Shown: positions 29,967-52,658 of the stretch, piece by piece
Numbering within the stretch: position 1 is the stretch's first letter
How the letters are laid out: every line of letters starts with the position of its first letter
NCBI GenBank assembly: GCA_033759635.1
Contig: GCA_033759635.1_4528.1
Origin: a phage
Reading direction: 5' to 3' (one strand)
Length of the DNA: 64,000 bases
The notes under the pieces: generated by a model
The model's database searches: none
What the model was told of the DNA's origin: nothing
What the model saw: only the letters and a program-made list of their open reading frames with translations
Program-made: the position numbers and the translations under genes

Positions 29967-30185
29967 ATGAAAACCAAAATGTTAGAAATGATTCGTGAAG
30001 CTGGTGATAAAGGTCTTATGGTTAACACTCGTAATGCAGACCAACGTCAAGCATTCGGTGAACTGAAATCTAAAGGTCTGGTTAAAGCATCCTTGGGAAT
30101 CGGTAATGCATTACGAGTCACTTTGACTCCTGCCGGTAAAGCAGTGTTCTTTCAACCTCTTACCAAAAAATCTCGTCGCAAATAA
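29967..30185 (+). CDS. small basic protein
   Basis: ORF 29907..30185 trimmed to MKTKMLEMIREAGDKG... (AGAGGAGAA RBS); 72 aa. Confidence 0.45.
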   Translation: MKTKMLEMIREAGDKGLMVNTRNADQRQAFGELKSKGLVKASLGIGNALRVTLTPAGKAVFFQPLTKKSRRK

Positions 30186-33361: not shown

Positions 33362-34321
33362 ATGGCTTTTATTACACGTAGAGAACTTATCAAAGAATTT
33401 ACCTCGAACGCATATACTCCAGGACCTAATCCTATCCGTATGCCTGTAAAAACTCCTGAAGAGATTGAGGAAGTCTGTTCGTATTATGGGATTACTTCTC
33501 GTATGTTTACTCAATTTGAATGTGTTACTAACACGCCCGTTAAAGAGTTCATTAAAAATGGTGAGTTCAGCCGTTTACTAGCCAAACAGAAACTTCGTAA
33601 TTTTTGTATTGGCGGTGAAGGACAATATTTCGCTAAGCAGTTCCGGAATAACCTTAACAATCTGATGGCCATTGCTTCTCGTATTCGTCCTCAAGCAATT
33701 AACATGAAACATTTGAAATATACTTACGATAAGTTGGAAATCATGGTTATCAGTGAGAACGAGTTCACTCTCACGTATAAACCTAAGAACGATAACGTTG
33801 CTCGTGTATTCCACCAAGCGTTAGAAGTTTTAGGTGATAATATCCACCAGATTAAAGCAATTTATTCTCGTGAGCTTAATATTATCGACCCTATCAAGAA
33901 TAAGGGCCATATCGCTATCCAGGCTCGTGTATCTATTGGTAAAAAGGTTCCTGCGCCATGGTGGCACAAAGACTCTGAATACTATCAAAATCTTAAAAAG
34001 GAAAATGCAACGTTCGAAGGCAATATCACAGCAACACCAGTCGGTAATGCAGAGGTTCTAAGCGCATATTCTCCGACACAACCCGGTATGTTTAAAGGTT
34101 TGCCAAATGTGTGCAAACTGTCGGCAGTAAAACTAAATGTTTCTAATGACCTTCTTCCGGCCGAAGATTATCATTACAACCAAATCAAGGCTACTGTAGA
34201 CCAACTGTCCGTTGAACTTGACAAAGCACAAGCTAAGCTTCGTGATGCTCAAAGTGTTGTAACGAATCTCCAGTTGCAGTACTCTAAACTTTTTAACGCA
34301 ATGAATGCGTTAAAATCATAA
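33362..34321 (+). CDS. hypothetical protein with C-terminal coiled coil (319 aa)
   Basis: Same architecture as neighbours; C-terminus ATVDQLSVELDKAQAKLRDAQSVVTNLQLQY. Confidence 0.5.
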   Translation: MAFITRRELIKEFTSNAYTPGPNPIRMPVKTPEEIEEVCSYYGITSRMFTQFECVTNTPVKEFIKNGEFSRLLAKQKLRNFCIGGEGQYFAKQFRNNLNNLMAIASRIRPQAINMKHLKYTYDKLEIMVISENEFTLTYKPKNDNVARVFHQALEVLGDNIHQIKAIYSRELNIIDPIKNKGHIAIQARVSIGKKVPAPWWHKDSEYYQNLKKENATFEGNITATPVGNAEVLSAYSPTQPGMFKGLPNVCKLSAVKLNVSNDLLPAEDYHYNQIKATVDQLSVELDKAQAKLRDAQSVVTNLQLQYSKLFNAMNALKS

Positions 34322-45249: not shown

Positions 45250-46269
45250 ATGAAAATTTTGCACTTAGGCGACTTCCATATCGGAGTCAAACAAGACGAC
45301 CCATGGGTTCAAGATATTCAACGTGATGGTATTCGACAAGCAATTGAATACTCTAAGAAACACGGGATTAAAACTTGGATTCAGTACGGTGATTGGTTTG
45401 ATGTCCGTAAAGCAATAACACATCGTACAATGGAATTCAATCGTGAAATCGTTGATATGATTTCTAAAGCAGGCATTCACGTTCATGTCACGATAGGAAA
45501 CCATGACATGGCGTTTAAGAATACAATAACACCTAACACTGTTTCTGAATTGTTAACTCAATTTGAAAACTTTACTATTTACGAACATCCAACTACTGTA
45601 GATTTTGACGGATGTCTGATTGATATCGTTCCATGGATGTGTGAAGAAAATACAGGTGAAATCTTAGAGCACATCAAGACTTCTTCTGCTGCGTATTGTG
45701 TTGGTCACTGGGAACTGAACGGCTTTTATTTCTATAAAGGAATGAAGTCTCATGGGCTTGAACCCGATTTCTTAAAGACATATAAACAAGTCTGGTCTGG
45801 CCACTTCCACACAATCTCTGAAGCTGCTAACGTCAAATATATTGGGACACCATGGACCCTTACTGCAGGTGACGAGAACGACCCACGTGGATTCTGGGTA
45901 TTTGACACTGATGTTGAACGTATGGAATTTATTCCTAATGAAACAACATGGCATCGACGAATCACTTATCCATTTAAAGGCAAAATCAATTATTCTGATT
46001 ATACTAATCTAGCCGTACGTGTTATAGTATCAGAAATTGATTCAGAGTTGACTAAGTTTGAATCTGAACTTGAAAAAGTAGTTCACTCTCTTCGTATGGT
46101 TTCTAAAGTTGATAACAGTGTTGAATCTGATGACGACCAGGAAATCGAGATTAAATCACTTCAAGATATCATTAAAGAATATATTGACGCGATTCCAGAT
46201 ATCTCAGACGAAGACAGAGAAGCGCTGGTCAAATATTCCAACGAACTTTATATTGAGGCAACACAATGA
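45250..46269 (+). CDS. 47: recombination endonuclease subunit gp47 (Mre11/SbcD-like)
   Basis: Phosphoesterase motifs (LHLGDFH, GNHD, GHWE/GHFH); 339 aa as T4 gp47. Confidence 0.9.
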   Translation: MKILHLGDFHIGVKQDDPWVQDIQRDGIRQAIEYSKKHGIKTWIQYGDWFDVRKAITHRTMEFNREIVDMISKAGIHVHVTIGNHDMAFKNTITPNTVSELLTQFENFTIYEHPTTVDFDGCLIDIVPWMCEENTGEILEHIKTSSAAYCVGHWELNGFYFYKGMKSHGLEPDFLKTYKQVWSGHFHTISEAANVKYIGTPWTLTAGDENDPRGFWVFDTDVERMEFIPNETTWHRRITYPFKGKINYSDYTNLAVRVIVSEIDSELTKFESELEKVVHSLRMVSKVDNSVESDDDQEIEIKSLQDIIKEYIDAIPDISDEDREALVKYSNELYIEATQ

Positions 46270-46523
46270 CTTTAGATGAATTTAATAATGCTGGGCTCGG
46301 GCTTGAAGTTGAAATAGACGTTAAAGATGATGATGGATTCGAGAACACTATCAAGTATTGGATTGAGCCATTACGCGTTGAAGGCAATGAAGTTAAAGCC
46401 GTTCATGTCTGTACCGACTGGGCTATTGAATTTAGCTTTAATATAATGGACAACGATACTCCTGGCTCTATTCTTAAAATGGCTGAAGCATGTATCAAGG
46501 ATGCGTATAATGACGAAGACTGA
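46266..46523 (+). CDS. hypothetical protein
   Basis: 85-aa acidic ORF between 47 and 46. Confidence 0.45.
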   Translation: MTLDEFNNAGLGLEVEIDVKDDDGFENTIKYWIEPLRVEGNEVKAVHVCTDWAIEFSFNIMDNDTPGSILKMAEACIKDAYNDED

Positions 46524-46749
46524 TTATGAAATCCATCGTCATGAATTTAGTATTGGTGACGGTTATATTGGTATCGTTGAATGGACTGAGAATTACGAGG
46601 AGACAACTCCTCGTTTCTTTGGAACAATGTATGTTACCTGTGAGTACGCACCGGGTGTTGTTATGTATGCAGAACTAGATGAATATTTTGCTGATAGAGA
46701 TGACATGTTAAAATATGTAGAGGACTTCATTCGAAGAGAATACATATGA
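46501..46749 (+). CDS. hypothetical protein
   Basis: 82-aa ORF, coupled to gene 46. Confidence 0.45.
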   Translation: MRIMTKTDYEIHRHEFSIGDGYIGIVEWTENYEETTPRFFGTMYVTCEYAPGVVMYAELDEYFADRDDMLKYVEDFIRREYI

Positions 46750-48434
46750 AATCATTTAAATTAAATCGTGTTCGTTATCAAAACATCATGTCGGTAGGTG
46801 GGAATCCTATTGATATCCAATTAGATAAAGTCCAAAAGACATTAATCACCGGTAAAAATGGCGGTGGTAAATCTACGATGTTAGAAGCCATCACTTTCGG
46901 ACTTTTCGGTAAACCATTTCGTGATGTTAAGAAAGGACAAATCATTAATAGCACGAACAAGAAAGAGCTCTTAGTTGAGCTTTGGATGGAATTCGATGAT
47001 AAAAAATACTTCATTAAACGTGGCCAAAAGCCCAATATTTTCGAAATCTCCGTTGACGGTGTTCGTCTTGATGAATCTGCCAGCAGTCGTGACTTCCAAG
47101 AAGAATTTGAACGTAGCATCGGAATGTCATACGCGTCTTTTAAACAGATCGTTGTGCTTGGGACGGCAGGGTATACCCCTTTCATGGCTCTTAGCACCCC
47201 TGCTCGCAGAAAACTTGTCGAAGACCTTTTAGAAGTTGGCACACTCGCTGAAATGGATAAAATCAATAAGTCTCAAGTTCGAGAACTTAATTCCCAGGGA
47301 CAAGTTCTCGATGCCAAGAAAGATGGTGTTATCCAACAAATTAAGATTTATAATGAGAATATCGAACGTCAAAAGAAATTATCTGGTGATAATGTAGCGC
47401 GTCTACAGAATATGTATGACGACCTAGCCAAAGAAGCTCGTTCATTAAAATCAGAAATTGAAGAAGCTAACGAGCGTCTACTTAATATCGTTCTTGACGA
47501 AGACCCTACTGAGGCATTCAACAAGATAGGACAAGAAGCATTCTTGATTAAATCTAAAATTGACTCATATAACAAAGTTATTAAGATGTATCATGATGGC
47601 GGTACATGTCCTACTTGTGCATCACAGTTGCACCAGGGTGATCCTATTGTCTCTAAGATTACCGATAAGCTTCATGAATGTAATCACTCATTCGAGCAAC
47701 TTACCTGTCACAGAGATAATCTGAGTGTCCTAGTGGACGAATATAGAGCTAATGTTAAGACTAAGCAGGACCTTGCATCTGATATTCGTACCAAGAAACA
47801 AGCAATGATTGCCACTATTGATAAAGCTAAGAAAGTTAAAGCTGCAATAGAGCAAGCCTCGGCAGAATTTATCGACCATGCCGATGAGATAGCTTTGCTT
47901 CAAAAAGAACTTGATAAAATCATTAAAACAAAATCAGATATCGTTCTTGAAAAATACCATCGTGGTATTATCACAGATATGTTAAAAGATTCTGGTATTA
48001 AAGGTGCTATCATTAAAAAATATGTGCCTCTGTTCAACAAGCAGATTAACCATTATCTTAAAATCATGGAAGCTGATTACGTGTTTTCTATTGATGAAGA
48101 ATTCAATGAATCTATAAAATCACGTGGCCGTGAAGAGTTCAGTTATGCTTCATTTAGTCAAGGTGAAAAGGCACGTATCGATATCGCATTGTTGTTTACA
48201 TGGCGAGATATTGCTGAAAAAGTCTCTGGTGTTAGAATCAATACATTAATTATGGACGAAGTCATGGATTCCGCGACTGATTCTGAAGGTATTAAAGCTA
48301 TTTCAACAATTCTTAACTCTCTAACCGATGCAAACGTGTTTATAATTAGTCACAGAGACCATGACCCACAAGCTTATGGACAACATCTTCAAATGAGCAA
48401 AGTTGGACGATTTACTGTGATGACTGTTTCATAA
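46746..48434 (+). CDS. 46: recombination endonuclease subunit gp46 (Rad50/SbcC-like ATPase)
   Basis: Walker A GKNGGGKST, central coiled coil with CPTC zinc hook, signature SQGEKARIDIAL, Walker B LIMDEV; 562 aa. Confidence 0.9.
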   Translation: MKSFKLNRVRYQNIMSVGGNPIDIQLDKVQKTLITGKNGGGKSTMLEAITFGLFGKPFRDVKKGQIINSTNKKELLVELWMEFDDKKYFIKRGQKPNIFEISVDGVRLDESASSRDFQEEFERSIGMSYASFKQIVVLGTAGYTPFMALSTPARRKLVEDLLEVGTLAEMDKINKSQVRELNSQGQVLDAKKDGVIQQIKIYNENIERQKKLSGDNVARLQNMYDDLAKEARSLKSEIEEANERLLNIVLDEDPTEAFNKIGQEAFLIKSKIDSYNKVIKMYHDGGTCPTCASQLHQGDPIVSKITDKLHECNHSFEQLTCHRDNLSVLVDEYRANVKTKQDLASDIRTKKQAMIATIDKAKKVKAAIEQASAEFIDHADEIALLQKELDKIIKTKSDIVLEKYHRGIITDMLKDSGIKGAIIKKYVPLFNKQINHYLKIMEADYVFSIDEEFNESIKSRGREEFSYASFSQGEKARIDIALLFTWRDIAEKVSGVRINTLIMDEVMDSATDSEGIKAISTILNSLTDANVFIISHRDHDPQAYGQHLQMSKVGRFTVMTVS

Positions 48435-48469
48435 ACGCTTTAACACGATGTGGTTATAATGACCACATC
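48435..48469 (+). promoter_or_regulatory. middle-type promoter (GCTTTA box) with stem-loop
   Basis: aacGCTTTAac then GATGTGGT-TATAAT-GACCACATC. Confidence 0.45.
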
Positions 48470-48488
48470 AAATTAAATGGAGAACAAC

Positions 48489-48677
48489 ATGGAGTATTCA
48501 ACCGGACAACATCTTCTCGTTGTCCCTGAAATTAAAAAATATGTTTTGACCAATACGTTTTCAGGTGAAGAACATATTGTTACTGAACAAATGCTCAAAT
48601 CTGCTTTTAAAGATGAGTATAATAAAATAATGTCTAATCGCAATTCCGCATGGACAGTTACTGACTTCTACGAATAA
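48489..48677 (+). CDS. hypothetical protein
   Basis: ORF 48477..48677 trimmed to the Met with GGAG RBS (MEYSTGQHLL...). Confidence 0.45.
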   Translation: MEYSTGQHLLVVPEIKKYVLTNTFSGEEHIVTEQMLKSAFKDEYNKIMSNRNSAWTVTDFYE

Positions 48678-48689
48678 GAGAGAAATAAT

Positions 48690-49106
48690 ATGTTTACTAC
48701 TGCTAAAGGTTTCACTGCTGCTGATCTGAAAGTTACTTCTATCCGTACTGACGCTAACCCGCATAACCATAATCGTGTTCGTAAAGCATGGGTCCTGCAT
48801 TGTGATGACGCAAGTGCTAAAAAGCTTCAATCTTTGCCACAAGAAACTCGTTTTATGATTTATGGTTTTATTGATAACGATGTATCTGATATGTGGATTC
48901 ATCTGATGCGTAAGCACTATAAAGATTCTATTGAAGCCGGCGGGAAAATCGTTCTTGATAAAGACGGTTCTGAGCGTCTAGAAGATTTCTATTGTGTTGA
49001 TGCCGACGAACAACTAATCGCAGCCGGCGAAATTGTTGCTTCTAAAATTCCAGAATATATTGAATCACTGCCTGAAGCTATTAAAAAGCAGATGGTTGCT
49101 GCTTGA
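48690..49106 (+). CDS. hypothetical protein in rpbA position
   Basis: 138 aa; sits between gene 46 and gene 45 where T4 has rpbA; no motif checked. Confidence 0.35.
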   Translation: MFTTAKGFTAADLKVTSIRTDANPHNHNRVRKAWVLHCDDASAKKLQSLPQETRFMIYGFIDNDVSDMWIHLMRKHYKDSIEAGGKIVLDKDGSERLEDFYCVDADEQLIAAGEIVASKIPEYIESLPEAIKKQMVAA

Positions 49107-50001
49107 TAATTATGAATTTAATATATCTTATAACCTTTTATAATCGTGAGATTAAAAATGAATACCCTTGTTATTATATAGGTTCTAAAGTTTCGTGTCA
49201 TTTTAATGGAAAGGATATTATTGAAGATTCTACCGGTAAAATATATACCGGTAGTGTTAATTCCTCGTATTCTCCTTTATATAACAGATTAATAGACCAA
49301 GGCGAATATTCTGTAAAATTTTAGGCGAAACCACATTAGACCCTAGAAGAATAGAAAGACTATTCCAACTCAATGTTAAAGCCGTTTCAAATGAAAAATA
49401 TTTTAATAAGGCTTATGCTAACGAGAAGTCTAGAATATCAGCTAAAGGATATGCACCGTATAAAAATTTAAAAACAGGCAAAATAGTAAAACTTTCTAAA
49501 AACGAAATAAACGAAGATTACGTCGGTGTTAGAAAAAATTGCAAATTGTCGGAGAATCATTTAAACGCAATTAGAGAATTTCAAAAAACATATTGGACCA
49601 AAGAACGAAGAGAGAAAGTTTCTATTCGTTCTAAAAAAATGTTTAGCGATAGAGATTTTGCTTTAAAATTTAAAGATATAATGAATTCTCCTAATGTTAA
49701 AGATAAAATAAAAATATCTAAAACATTGTATTGGTCTAAACCTGAAAATAGAGCAAAGGCCTCTATCGCAGCTTCGAAAAGAAATGCAACCAAAGAATTT
49801 AAGGATAAATTCAGAAAATCTAAAGCTAGAGGTACATGGATATTTCATGAACAAAAATTAAAGGAATTGTGGATTGCTTTAGGAAAACCAAGTTATATTA
49901 CATTTAGAAAACATGCAATTCAGCATGGTTTTAATGATGAATCATACCAAGGTGCTATCCGGTCTTGGACAAATTATTATGCTAATAGGAAACCTAAATG
50001 A
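49103..50001 (+). mobile_element. free-standing GIY-YIG homing endonuclease gene (seg-like), split by a frameshift
   Basis: ORF 49103..49324 carries the GIY-YIG N-terminus (LIYLITF...YYIGS); a second frame is open from about 49285 to 50001 and carries repeated basic S/K motifs (REKVSIRSKK, RAKASIAASKR) typical of homing-endonuclease DNA-binding tails; locally AT-rich; lies between gene 46 and gene 45. Confidence 0.5.
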
Positions 50002-50684
50002 AACTTAGTCGTGAAACCGTAAATATTCTGAAAAACTTCGCTTCTATTAACTCTGGCATTCTGCTGAGTCAAGGTAAATTTATTATGACTCGTGCAGTTA
50101 ATGGCACCACTTATGCGGAAGCAAATATCTCTGATGAAATTGATTTTGACGTAGCACTTTATGATTTGAATAGCTTCTTAAGCATTTTGAGTCTAGTGTC
50201 TGACGATGCTGAAATTTCAATGCACACTGATGGTAATATTAAAATTGCAGATACACGTTCCACAGTTTATTGGCCTGCCGCTGACAAGAGCACCATTGTT
50301 TTTCCTAATAAGCCAATTCAATTCCCAGTGGCTTCTGTGATTACTGAAATTAAAGCCGAAGACCTTCAACAATTGCTTCGAGTTTCACGTGGTCTCCAAA
50401 TTGATACAATTGCTATTACAAATAAAGATGGTAAAATTGTTATCAATGGTTACAATAAAGTTGAAGATTCTGGCTTGACTCGTCCTAAGTATTCTTTGAC
50501 TCTTACCGATTATGATGGTTCTAACAACTTTAACTTCGTAATCAATATGGCTAATATGAAAATCCAGCCAGGTAACTATAAAGTAATGCTGTGGGGAGCT
50601 GGTGATAAAGTTGCAGCCAAGTTTGAAAGCTCTCAAGTAAGTTATGTTATTGCAATGGAAGCCGATTCTACTCACGACTTCTAA
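49998..50684 (+). CDS. 45: sliding clamp gp45
   Basis: 228 aa, identical in length to T4 gp45; synteny 45-44-62-regA-43. Confidence 0.9.
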   Translation: MKLSRETVNILKNFASINSGILLSQGKFIMTRAVNGTTYAEANISDEIDFDVALYDLNSFLSILSLVSDDAEISMHTDGNIKIADTRSTVYWPAADKSTIVFPNKPIQFPVASVITEIKAEDLQQLLRVSRGLQIDTIAITNKDGKIVINGYNKVEDSGLTRPKYSLTLTDYDGSNNFNFVINMANMKIQPGNYKVMLWGAGDKVAAKFESSQVSYVIAMEADSTHDF

Positions 50685-50759
50685 GTCAAAGCTTTACGTT
50701 TAATGTAGTACGATTATGGAGGAGAAATCCTCCAGATTAATGATAATGAGGAAAATTAC

Positions 50760-51722
50760 ATGATTACTATCAATTCCAAAGAACACATTCTAGAACAGAA
50801 ATATCGTCCTTCTTCCATTGACGAATGTATTCTGCCTGCGTATGACCATGAAACATTCAAGTCTTTAGTATCTAAAGGAAAACTTCCTCATATTATTTTA
50901 CACTCTCCATCTCCTGGTACAGGTAAAACAACCGTAGCAAAAGCATTATGTAATGATATCAATGCCGAAATGATGTTCGTCAACGGTTCTGATTGTAAGA
51001 TTGATTTTGTGCGTGGTCCGTTAACTGCATTCGCTCGTTCAGTCTCAATGGAAGGCAAGCCTAAAGTTATTGTTATTGATGAATTTGACCGTAGTGGCCT
51101 CGCCGAATCACAACGTCACCTTCGTACATTCATGGAAGAATTCTCTAGTAACTGCTCTATTATTATCACTGCTAACAATATTGATGGAATTATTGAACCA
51201 TTACGTAGCCGTTGTCGAGTTATCGAATTCGGACGTCCGACTGAAGAAGATAAAATCTCGATGATGAAGAAAATGATTCATCGTATGGTTGAAATCTGTA
51301 AGAACGAAAATATCGAAATCGCTGATATGAAAGTTGTTGCAGCTCTGGTTAAAAAGAATTTCCCGGACTTTCGTCGTACAATTGGCCAATTAGACCAGTA
51401 CTCGTCTAAAGGTGTTCTTGATGCAGGTATTCTGTCTATCGTAACTAATGACCGTGGCACAGTCTCTGATGTTATCGAAGCAATGAAGAACAAAAATATC
51501 AAACAGCTTCGTGCATTAGCTCCAAAATATGCTGCAGATTATTCATGGTTCATCGATAAATTAGTTTCAGAATGTTACGACCAAGTTGCACCTGGTAAAA
51601 GTATTATTTCGCTTTACGAAATTGCAGGCGAAAATAATAAGTTTCATGGACTAGCAAGTAATATTGAATTACATGTTATGTATATGCTTCTTCAACTGAC
51701 CTGTGAACTGACTTGGAAATAA
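50760..51722 (+). CDS. 44: clamp loader large subunit gp44 (AAA+)
   Basis: Walker [11 protein letters not shown], Walker B VIVIDEFD, sensor SRC; 320 aa. Confidence 0.9.
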
Positions 51723-51723
51723 T

Positions 51724-52287
51724 ATGAACTTATTCGATGATGACGTCCAGCTTAACGAGCACCAAATTGCATGGAAGTCTAATGACGCTGATGCGATTCA
51801 AAAATGTGCTGATATGTTTAAAGAAAAACCTGAGAATGAATTCTTTAAAATCATTAATGCTATTAATGAAAAGAAATCTATGTCAATTGCTCAGGTCGAC
51901 TACTCAAAATTTATGGTTGAGAACTCATTATCCCAGTTCCCAGAATGTATGCCAGCCGTTTACATGATGAACTTAGTCGGTTCTGAATTAAGTGATGAAG
52001 CGCACTTCAACTATATGATGGCGGCAATTCCACGTGGTCGTCGATTCTCTAAATGGGCTAAACTAGTCGAAGACACTTCAGAGTTACTAGTTATCAAACT
52101 GTTGATGAAACATTACACAATCAACATGAACGATGCTACCGAGTATAAGCGGCTCCTTGAAAAAAATAACAAGTTGCCAATAGTCCTTAAAGAACTGAAG
52201 GCCATGGTCACTGATGAATTTCTCAAAGAAGTTACTAAAAACGTAAAAGAACAAAAACAATTTAAAAAATTAGCATTGGAATGGTAA
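51724..52287 (+). CDS. 62: clamp loader small subunit gp62
   Basis: 187 aa immediately after gene 44, as in T4. Confidence 0.8.
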
Positions 52288-52289
52288 AA

Positions 52290-52658
52290 ATGATTGAAAT
52301 TAAATTGAAGAACCCTGAAGATTTTCTTAAAGTCAAAGAGACTTTGACCCGTATGGGCATCGCTAATAACAAAGATAAAGTCCTTTACCAGTCTTGTCAT
52401 ATCCTCCAAAAGCAAGGTAAATATTACATCGTCCACTTTAAAGAAATGCTGCGTATGGACGGGCGTCAGGTTGATATTGATGGTGAAGACTATCAGCGAC
52501 GTGATTCGATTGCTCAGTTGCTTGAAGACTGGGGATTAATTGTTATTGAAGACTCTGCTCGTGAAGATCTGTTTGGCCTGACTAATAACTTCCGTGTTAT
52601 CTCTTTTAAACAGAAAGATGACTGGACTTTGAAAGCAAAATATACAATTGGTAATTAA
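52290..52658 (+). CDS. regA: translational repressor RegA
   Basis: ORF 52281..52658 trimmed to MIEIKLKNPEDFLKVKETLTRMGIANNK...; 122 aa as T4 RegA. Confidence 0.85.
   Translation: MIEIKLKNPEDFLKVKETLTRMGIANNKDKVLYQSCHILQKQGKYYIVHFKEMLRMDGRQVDIDGEDYQRRDSIAQLLEDWGLIVIEDSAREDLFGLTNNFRVISFKQKDDWTLKAKYTIGN

Follow-up and report, generated by a model that had tools for sequence, protein, structure and literature searches.

The DNA analysed here, which we call the window, is a 64,000-nucleotide (nt) stretch of phage DNA (GenBank assembly GCA_033759635.1, contig GCA_033759635.1_4528.1), and its matches to phage records place it among the T4-type phages, as an RB69-like Mosigvirus. Between rpbA and gene 45, the gene of the sliding clamp, the window carries a segment in which an N-terminal protein fragment and its missing remainder lie in two different reading frames. 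We consider it very probable that this segment is a recently inactivated pseudogene of a SegG-like homing endonuclease of the GIY-YIG class, situated at the rpbA/45 junction. The features of the locus, with protein lengths in amino acids (aa) and open reading frames abbreviated as ORFs, are the following.

48690-49106, plus strand: rpbA (gene 45.1), matched by Pfam Phage_RpbA (E 5.6e-48) and annotated as RNA polymerase binding protein in all relatives.
49112-50001, plus strand: the probable SegG-like GIY-YIG homing endonuclease pseudogene as a whole, 890 nt here and 891 nt (296 aa) where intact.
49112-49324, plus strand: N-terminal fragment ORF of 70 aa, with the motifs I-Y, Y-I-G-S-K and K-I-Y-T-G-S, ending in a TAG at 49322-49324.
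49315-49318, plus strand: frameshift site, a run of four A (A4) here and of five (A5) in ten relatives in a multiple alignment.
49318-50001, plus strand: the rest of the gene in the -1 frame (codons 71-296), with Glu82, Asn99, a beta linker, six helical repeats and a C-terminal helical domain.
49546-50001, plus strand: TTG-started ORF of 151 aa, which is the tail alone and is identical to NCBI ELX3919569.1, 'hypothetical protein [Escherichia coli]'.
49987-49992, plus strand: Shine-Dalgarno sequence of gene 45, AGGAAA, within the last endonuclease codons, as read from the sequence.
49998-50684, plus strand: gene 45 (sliding clamp), the downstream neighbour, with Pfam DNA_PPF and gp45-slide_C matched on the identical locus of a Logan assembly.
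50006-50023, plus strand: recoded 5' segment of gene 45, with 12 mismatches in 18 nt against RB69, giving K5R, D6E, I8V and A9N.

Translation of positions 48600-50600 in three frames showed how the segment is divided. The first frame (frame A) runs from the ATG at 49112 to the TAG listed above, and the second (frame B), which lies one base back, stays open from 49285 to the TGA at 49999-50001, over 239 codons. A preliminary description of this DNA, made from its letters, had stated that the two frames overlap at 49285-49324, that the second stays open for about 240 codons and that the segment is markedly AT-rich; all of this was recovered, with a GC content of 0.26-0.31 over 49000-49900 as against 0.35-0.40 in the flanks. 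The same description was right in seeing a short N-terminal GIY-YIG ORF, but its length of 73 aa assumes as start the TTG at 49103, which overlaps with the stop codon of rpbA, whereas the true start is the ATG at 49112, 5 nt beyond the rpbA stop codon and the annotated start in the relatives. It had also placed the insertion between genes 46 and 45. The segment does lie upstream of gene 45, but its immediate neighbours are rpbA and gene 45, and gene 46 is two genes further upstream.

The long second frame calls for an explanation other than accident. The segment is 0.41 A and 0.30 T, a composition in which about 9% of random codons would be stops, and by our own arithmetic the chance of 239 open codons at this rate is roughly 1e-10; the open stretch is therefore not a product of chance. 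In frame B the first ATG, GTG or TTG is found only at 49546 (TTG), and since no possible start precedes it, gene callers report just the 151-aa ORF in this frame. This ORF is an artefact of the frameshift. An exact look-up of contigs with the 151-aa ORF returned no record, though the cluster table lists ELX3919569.1.

The two frames are separated by the loss of a single base. For comparison we used ten copies from GenBank phages that carry the segment at about 98% identity; at the A-run where the multiple alignment revealed the deletion, these ten relatives show GTAAAAATTTTAGG and the window shows GTAAAATTTTAGG. Half of the ten (AV109, AV114, AV118, AV116 and FL31) have in the same place an intact 296-aa ORF, annotated as a single 891-nt coding sequence (CDS), and when the missing A is restored the window sequence reads ...EYSVKILGETT..., continuous with the intact proteins. 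The 70-aa product that can be made from the window copy retains the family-invariant residues Y5, Y22, G24, Y45 and S48 of the GIY and YIG strands; the shift removes from it Glu82, Asn99 and the entire DNA-binding tail. Because these two invariant residues and the whole tail are lost, the window copy is dead, and its 70-aa product cannot be an active site-specific nuclease.

The identity of the broken gene was established on the repaired protein. BLASTP aligns its residues 1-136 with T4 SegG at 38% identity (E 4e-16), and this alignment runs uninterrupted across residues 70/71, the frameshift junction; the two frames were therefore once one gene. PHROG 7504, 'homing endonuclease', matches the same residues (E 2e-16), and in tblastn searches SegG was matched in many T4-type genomes. 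Together with the sporadic distribution detailed below, these similarities bear out the seg-type GIY-YIG identity proposed in the preliminary description. SegG of T4 is free-standing, and its activity as a GIY-YIG homing endonuclease has been shown by experiment; the gene that it cuts is gene 32, next to segG itself (PMC2988022).

Among 1.84 billion representative sequences, a profile search collected 228 family members. In an alignment of 88 of them, residues Y5, Y22, G24, Y45, S48, E82 and N99 are invariant, and I23 is nearly so. The GIY tripeptide (I4-Y5) and the YIG tripeptide (Y22-I23-G24) are both in frame A of the window, at a spacing of 16 residues where 10-11 is usual, and the counterparts of the catalytic Glu and Asn (Glu75 and Asn90 in I-TevI) are E82 and N99, which in the window exist only in the -1 frame. 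The SegE_GIY-YIG model is matched by 6 of the 88 relatives, in every case below its curated cut-off. Between diverged alleles, the ratio of nonsynonymous to synonymous substitution rates (dN/dS) is 0.14-0.23, and the family has therefore been under selection for function.

Structure prediction agrees with this assignment. With 88 sequences, AlphaFold produced a model of the repaired protein with a predicted local distance difference test score (pLDDT) of 89, as against 57 with four sequences, which was unusable. The model has the GIY-YIG alpha/beta fold, and its structure matches in BFVD are SegG, gp32.1 and other GIY-YIG or NUMOD homing endonucleases; a Foldseek search of the model against the PDB found nothing. 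The tail consists in the model of six helices at residues 148-236 and a helical domain at 242-291. A NUMOD-like character of the tail, as expected earlier, was not demonstrated in this protein. NUMOD3 (PF07460) is unmatched in the repaired protein and in three full-length homologues (49-63% identical), the best score being a weak E 0.11 in the T4-type allele; 64 of the 88 relatives do carry NUMOD3, right after the point that corresponds to residue 153, and it is at this point that hhalign alignments to the NUMOD3-bearing relatives stop, with only residues 1-153 aligned. The profile of the 88 members had as its sole match among PDB sequences the NUMOD3 region of the I-TevI DNA-binding domain (1i3j, E 4e-4), and the same search with a four-member alignment gave nothing. 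A profile of the tail finds canonical PF01541 GIY-YIG proteins with similar helical repeats.

The segment has the distribution of a mobile gene. It is present in 10 of the 199 phage records that match the region from rpbA to gene 45, while RB69 and about 95% of the relatives lack it. Comparison with relatives lacking the insertion, which had been suggested as a way to find its boundaries, was informative: at this site RB69 has instead a spacer of 42 base pairs (bp), in which the ribosome-binding site of gene 45 is located. The cassette has replaced this spacer and now itself carries the gene 45 ribosome-binding site, in the Shine-Dalgarno sequence listed above (the RB69 counterpart of this stretch is AAGGAAATAAAATG). 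The coupling is close, with the endonuclease TGA overlapping the gene 45 ATG in the sequence ATGA. Among about 500 T4-type records, 25 have an allele of 57-62% identity at this rpbA/45 site, and so does the Gaprivervirus TH15. At least three T-even genera have members of this unnamed Seg-type family where rpbA and gene 45 meet; a search of the literature for an endonuclease in this position found no papers.

In another Gaprivervirus, VR26 (KP007362.1 / NC_028957.1, about 30090-30169), a 210-aa 'putative DNA endonuclease' lies beside gene 45. It shares 63% identity with the intact protein and is possibly a further allele of this family that has been truncated.

Across the eleven copies (the window and its ten relatives), the insert has a nucleotide diversity of 0.0027 and the first 60 nt of gene 45 one of 0.003; the value rises to 0.0275 for rpbA and to 0.0134 for gene 45 beyond those 60 nt. 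The insert is a young cassette in older backgrounds. The beginning of gene 45 belongs with it: relative to RB69, nt 9-26 of the gene differ at 12 of 18 positions, then nt 42, 45 and 57 differ, and then none until about nt 399. This recoded variant (at least 97% identity) occurs only in the ten insert-bearing records, and insert-less Mosigviruses align to gene 45 from nt 27 onward, at up to 100%. At the protein level, clamp residues 5-9 are RETVN in the endonuclease-bearing phages only, as against KDTIA in RB69. With the T4-type allele, clamp residues 8-10 are likewise changed, to LNI as against TAL in T4, and with the TH15 allele Ala9 is retained.

From this linkage we infer that the homing target is the 5' end of gene 45, most likely its first ~26 nt, and that the recoded version would be the resistant allele. 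Judging from its family, the intact protein would be built of an N-terminal nuclease, a linker and a helical DNA-binding tail, and its expected substrate would be the DNA of RB69-type genomes that lack the endonuclease, cut close to where rpbA and gene 45 meet. If the break were then repaired from a co-infecting genome that bears the endonuclease, the endonuclease gene would be copied in along with the recoded 5' end of gene 45, which presumably resists cutting. Once dead, the gene may persist because it carries the translation signals of the essential gene 45 and has had little time to erode.

The window copy is not the only one that is broken. The ten relatives show four further independent frameshifts, all of them in A-runs.

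About 49583: A6 to A7, in JM17 and FL18.
About 49633: A7 to A6, in G2285.
About 49633: A7 to A11, in AV115.
About 49710: A5 to A4, in AV111.

Broken copies thus make up six of the eleven near-identical sequences, each disrupted by a change in poly-A length. Over the same eleven sequences only 7 sites are substituted in the 890 nt of the gene, while the flanks are free of indels and differ by about 60 substitutions. In phages, endonuclease genes with frameshifts have been described as common (PMC10448857), and our data are read most simply as a relaxation of selection that followed closely on the spread of an A-rich selfish gene. Decay was one of three causes that had been put forward for the split frame, the others being a programmed frameshift and a sequencing indel, and it is the best supported of them.

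The recurrence of these events in A-runs could be given a different meaning, namely that the runs are contingency loci at which reversible slippage turns a costly endonuclease off and on, the window allele being in its 'off' phase. All five independent indels fall in A-runs of 5-7, one A7 run having undergone both a gain and a loss, A makes up 41% of the gene, with 10 runs of at least 5, and the scarcity of substitutions in the gene beside indel-free flanks with many of them is as such a switch would have it. Yet an AT-rich gene under relaxed selection would be expected to show this pattern too in the wake of a recent sweep, no allele among the eleven copies carries a sign of reversion, and conservation of the A-runs does not extend to the diverged alleles, as judged from the one site examined. 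Runs of A5-A7 moreover mutate far more slowly than known phase-variable tracts, and we regard contingency as very improbable. Nor do we give much credit to a broader idea, in which the poly-A tracts act as mutational switches or the 'off' allele yields a nuclease-free tail (e.g. the 151-aa ORF from 49546) that binds the gene 45 leader. The DNA-binding domain of I-TevI, which represses its own promoter, offers an analogy for the latter, and if it were true the tail-only protein could modulate clamp expression or protect the target site; we think this improbable as well.

The two remaining causes concern the missing base itself. A homopolymer error in sequencing or assembly, in a phage that in reality has an intact and active endonuclease gene, would be in keeping with the position of the indel in an A5/T4 homopolymer pair, a classic error site, and with the near identity of the rest of the gene to intact alleles; some deposited T4-like genomes may contain errors, since in G2469, which comes from the same study as one frameshifted relative, the essential gene 45 is split. 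We nevertheless consider an error unlikely. Since a divergence of 2-8% from RB69 makes a nucleotide-level scan for indels too noisy, the window was checked with tblastn at the ORF level: none of the approximately 100 RB69 ORFs of at least 90 aa that map to the window is frameshifted. The gene holds only 10 of the 298 homopolymer runs of at least 5 in the window, so that a single random error would have a chance of about 4% of falling in it. Positions 46112-52324 of the window are 100% identical to part of a 42-kb contig in the Logan assembly of SRR24392125, produced by an independent assembler; this identity over 6,213 bp includes A4, and the exact 70-aa product is also called there. Together with ELX3919569.1, which belongs to an 'E. 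coli' assembly, it makes the phage sequence appear to derive from whole-genome data of E. coli. Short-read platforms seldom miscall runs of 5. The AV phages were sequenced on Illumina MiSeq (PMC10844046), and the occurrence of two of the four further A-run indels in these phages was counted in favour of real mutation. On this evidence a real mutation is more likely than an error. Full-length enzyme might alternatively be made from the window copy by a programmed -1 ribosomal frameshift, or by transcriptional slippage, at A-AAA-TTT-T. A shift of -1 is indeed the direction needed, tRNA-Lys on AAA can re-pair one base back (49315-49317), and a stop codon follows two codons later. But in each of the ten close relatives the reading frame runs unbroken through this site, and the diverged alleles are in frame through the same peptide with other nucleotides (GTC AAA ATT TTA, GTT ACT ATC ATT), so that the frame shift is not conserved. 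A check for a slippery site at the frame junction, which had been recommended, found A AAA UUU and no X XXY YYZ heptamer, since the tRNA-Phe of the A site would come to lie opposite AUU; folding of the next 99 nt is no stronger than that of shuffled sequences (z -0.55), and efficient slippage of RNA polymerase requires longer runs than four A. With neither heptamer, structure nor conservation, a programmed shift is effectively excluded.

One other candidate frameshift in the window, in nrdC.5 (33362-34321), was rejected: the gene is an intact ORF of 319 aa, compared with 300 in RB69, with a divergent stretch of about 50 residues at its C terminus.

Several points weigh against our interpretation of the locus as a recently dead homing endonuclease gene. 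The 88-member alignment has, in residues 25-60, no invariant Arg that would match Arg27 of I-TevI; conserved there instead are K26 and Y45-x-G47-S48, and the active T4 SegG is alike in this. The Pfam models PF01541 (GIY-YIG) and PF19835 miss the repaired protein, which has no Pfam hit at E up to 1, and NCBIfam gave no match either. T4 SegG is likewise without any Pfam match, and the Pfam miss is for this reason not evidence against a GIY-YIG identity; the Pfam models do not cover the SegG subclass. The Logan assembly and the source record may share the same reads, which makes a systematic read error conceivable. Finally, the putative target site in gene 45 comes from linkage and from the analogy with SegG, and cleavage and homing by the intact protein or its close relatives are predictions from the family.

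Beyond the immediate locus, the gene order was taken from the ORF list and the annotation of relatives.

46746-48434: gene 46.
48477-48677: gene 45.2 (Pfam Gp45_2).
Downstream of gene 45: genes 44, 62 and regA.

Scans for promoters, terminators and late promoters found none above chance. An inverted repeat with a perfect 9-bp stem, CTACCGGTA...TACCGGTAG, lies at 49230-49254 inside the endonuclease ORF and was considered as a functional hairpin. It arises because two Thr-Gly codon pairs are written ACC GGT, and ACCGGT is self-complementary; diverged alleles are without it, and it is probably incidental.

A second ORF of interest occurs in the same gene interval of other phages. In G2285, FL31 and G2469, a minus-strand ORF of about 717 nt (503-1219 in our loci L002, L010 and L012) lies between gene 46 and 45.2; it is annotated 'homing endonuclease' in FL31 and has no counterpart in the window, where the site is 48434-48477. 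The 46-45 interval looks like a hot spot for such endonuclease genes. In G2469 (MK327934.1), an insert-less Mosigvirus, gene 45 is represented by two overlapping CDS (1960-2701 of L012) in a locus 55 bp longer than that of RB69, which reflects either a duplication or insertion or an assembly problem.

The closest known system is T4 SegG (gp32.1), encoded between genes 59 and 32. The two proteins share the pattern I-Y...YYIGSK...Y-x-(G/S)-S...E...YFN, and both genes are free-standing, co-oriented with their neighbours and directly upstream of an essential replication gene whose expression signals they overlap or carry. SegG cuts in gene 32, and segG holds gene 32 promoters (PMC2988022), to which the gene 45 Shine-Dalgarno sequence in the end of the endonuclease gene is a parallel. 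The insertion site differs, however, being rpbA/45 rather than 59/32, and with it the presumed target. The intact protein has 296 aa as against 210 in SegG, and its tail of six helical repeats and a helical domain is without detectable similarity to that of SegG, fragments after residue 136 being not significant. T4 segG is moreover intact and experimentally active, whereas the window copy is frameshifted.

With I-TevI, encoded in the T4 td intron, the family shares the order of N-terminal nuclease, linker and DNA-binding tail. The two differ in that identity is 20%, the GIY-YIG spacing is 16 rather than about 10 and Arg27 has no alignable counterpart; unlike the intron-encoded enzyme, the present gene is free-standing, and neither a zinc finger nor a NUMOD3 hit was found in this protein. 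In its sporadic occurrence, its high identity across diverged backgrounds and its frameshifts or truncations, the gene resembles other decaying phage endonuclease genes, such as I-TevIII in T4 and the variable genes of ICP1 (PMC10448857; PMC2790892). It departs from these in that all five inactivating events are poly-A changes within single tracts and the copy is otherwise almost unchanged, which therefore puts it at a very early stage of decay.

For annotation, these results mean that the 70-aa and 151-aa 'hypothetical proteins' should be one SegG-like homing endonuclease pseudogene. The locus offers an unusually clean snapshot of the first step in the decay of an endonuclease gene, and the intact alleles (e.g. 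those of AV109 and FL31) together with this natural knock-out form an experimental pair for homing and marker-exclusion crosses in RB69-type phages. The current understanding of homing endonucleases is unchanged by it, and inactivation is the ordinary fate of such selfish genes; what the locus brings to view is a recoded 5' end of the clamp gene that travels with an endonuclease family at rpbA/gene 45.

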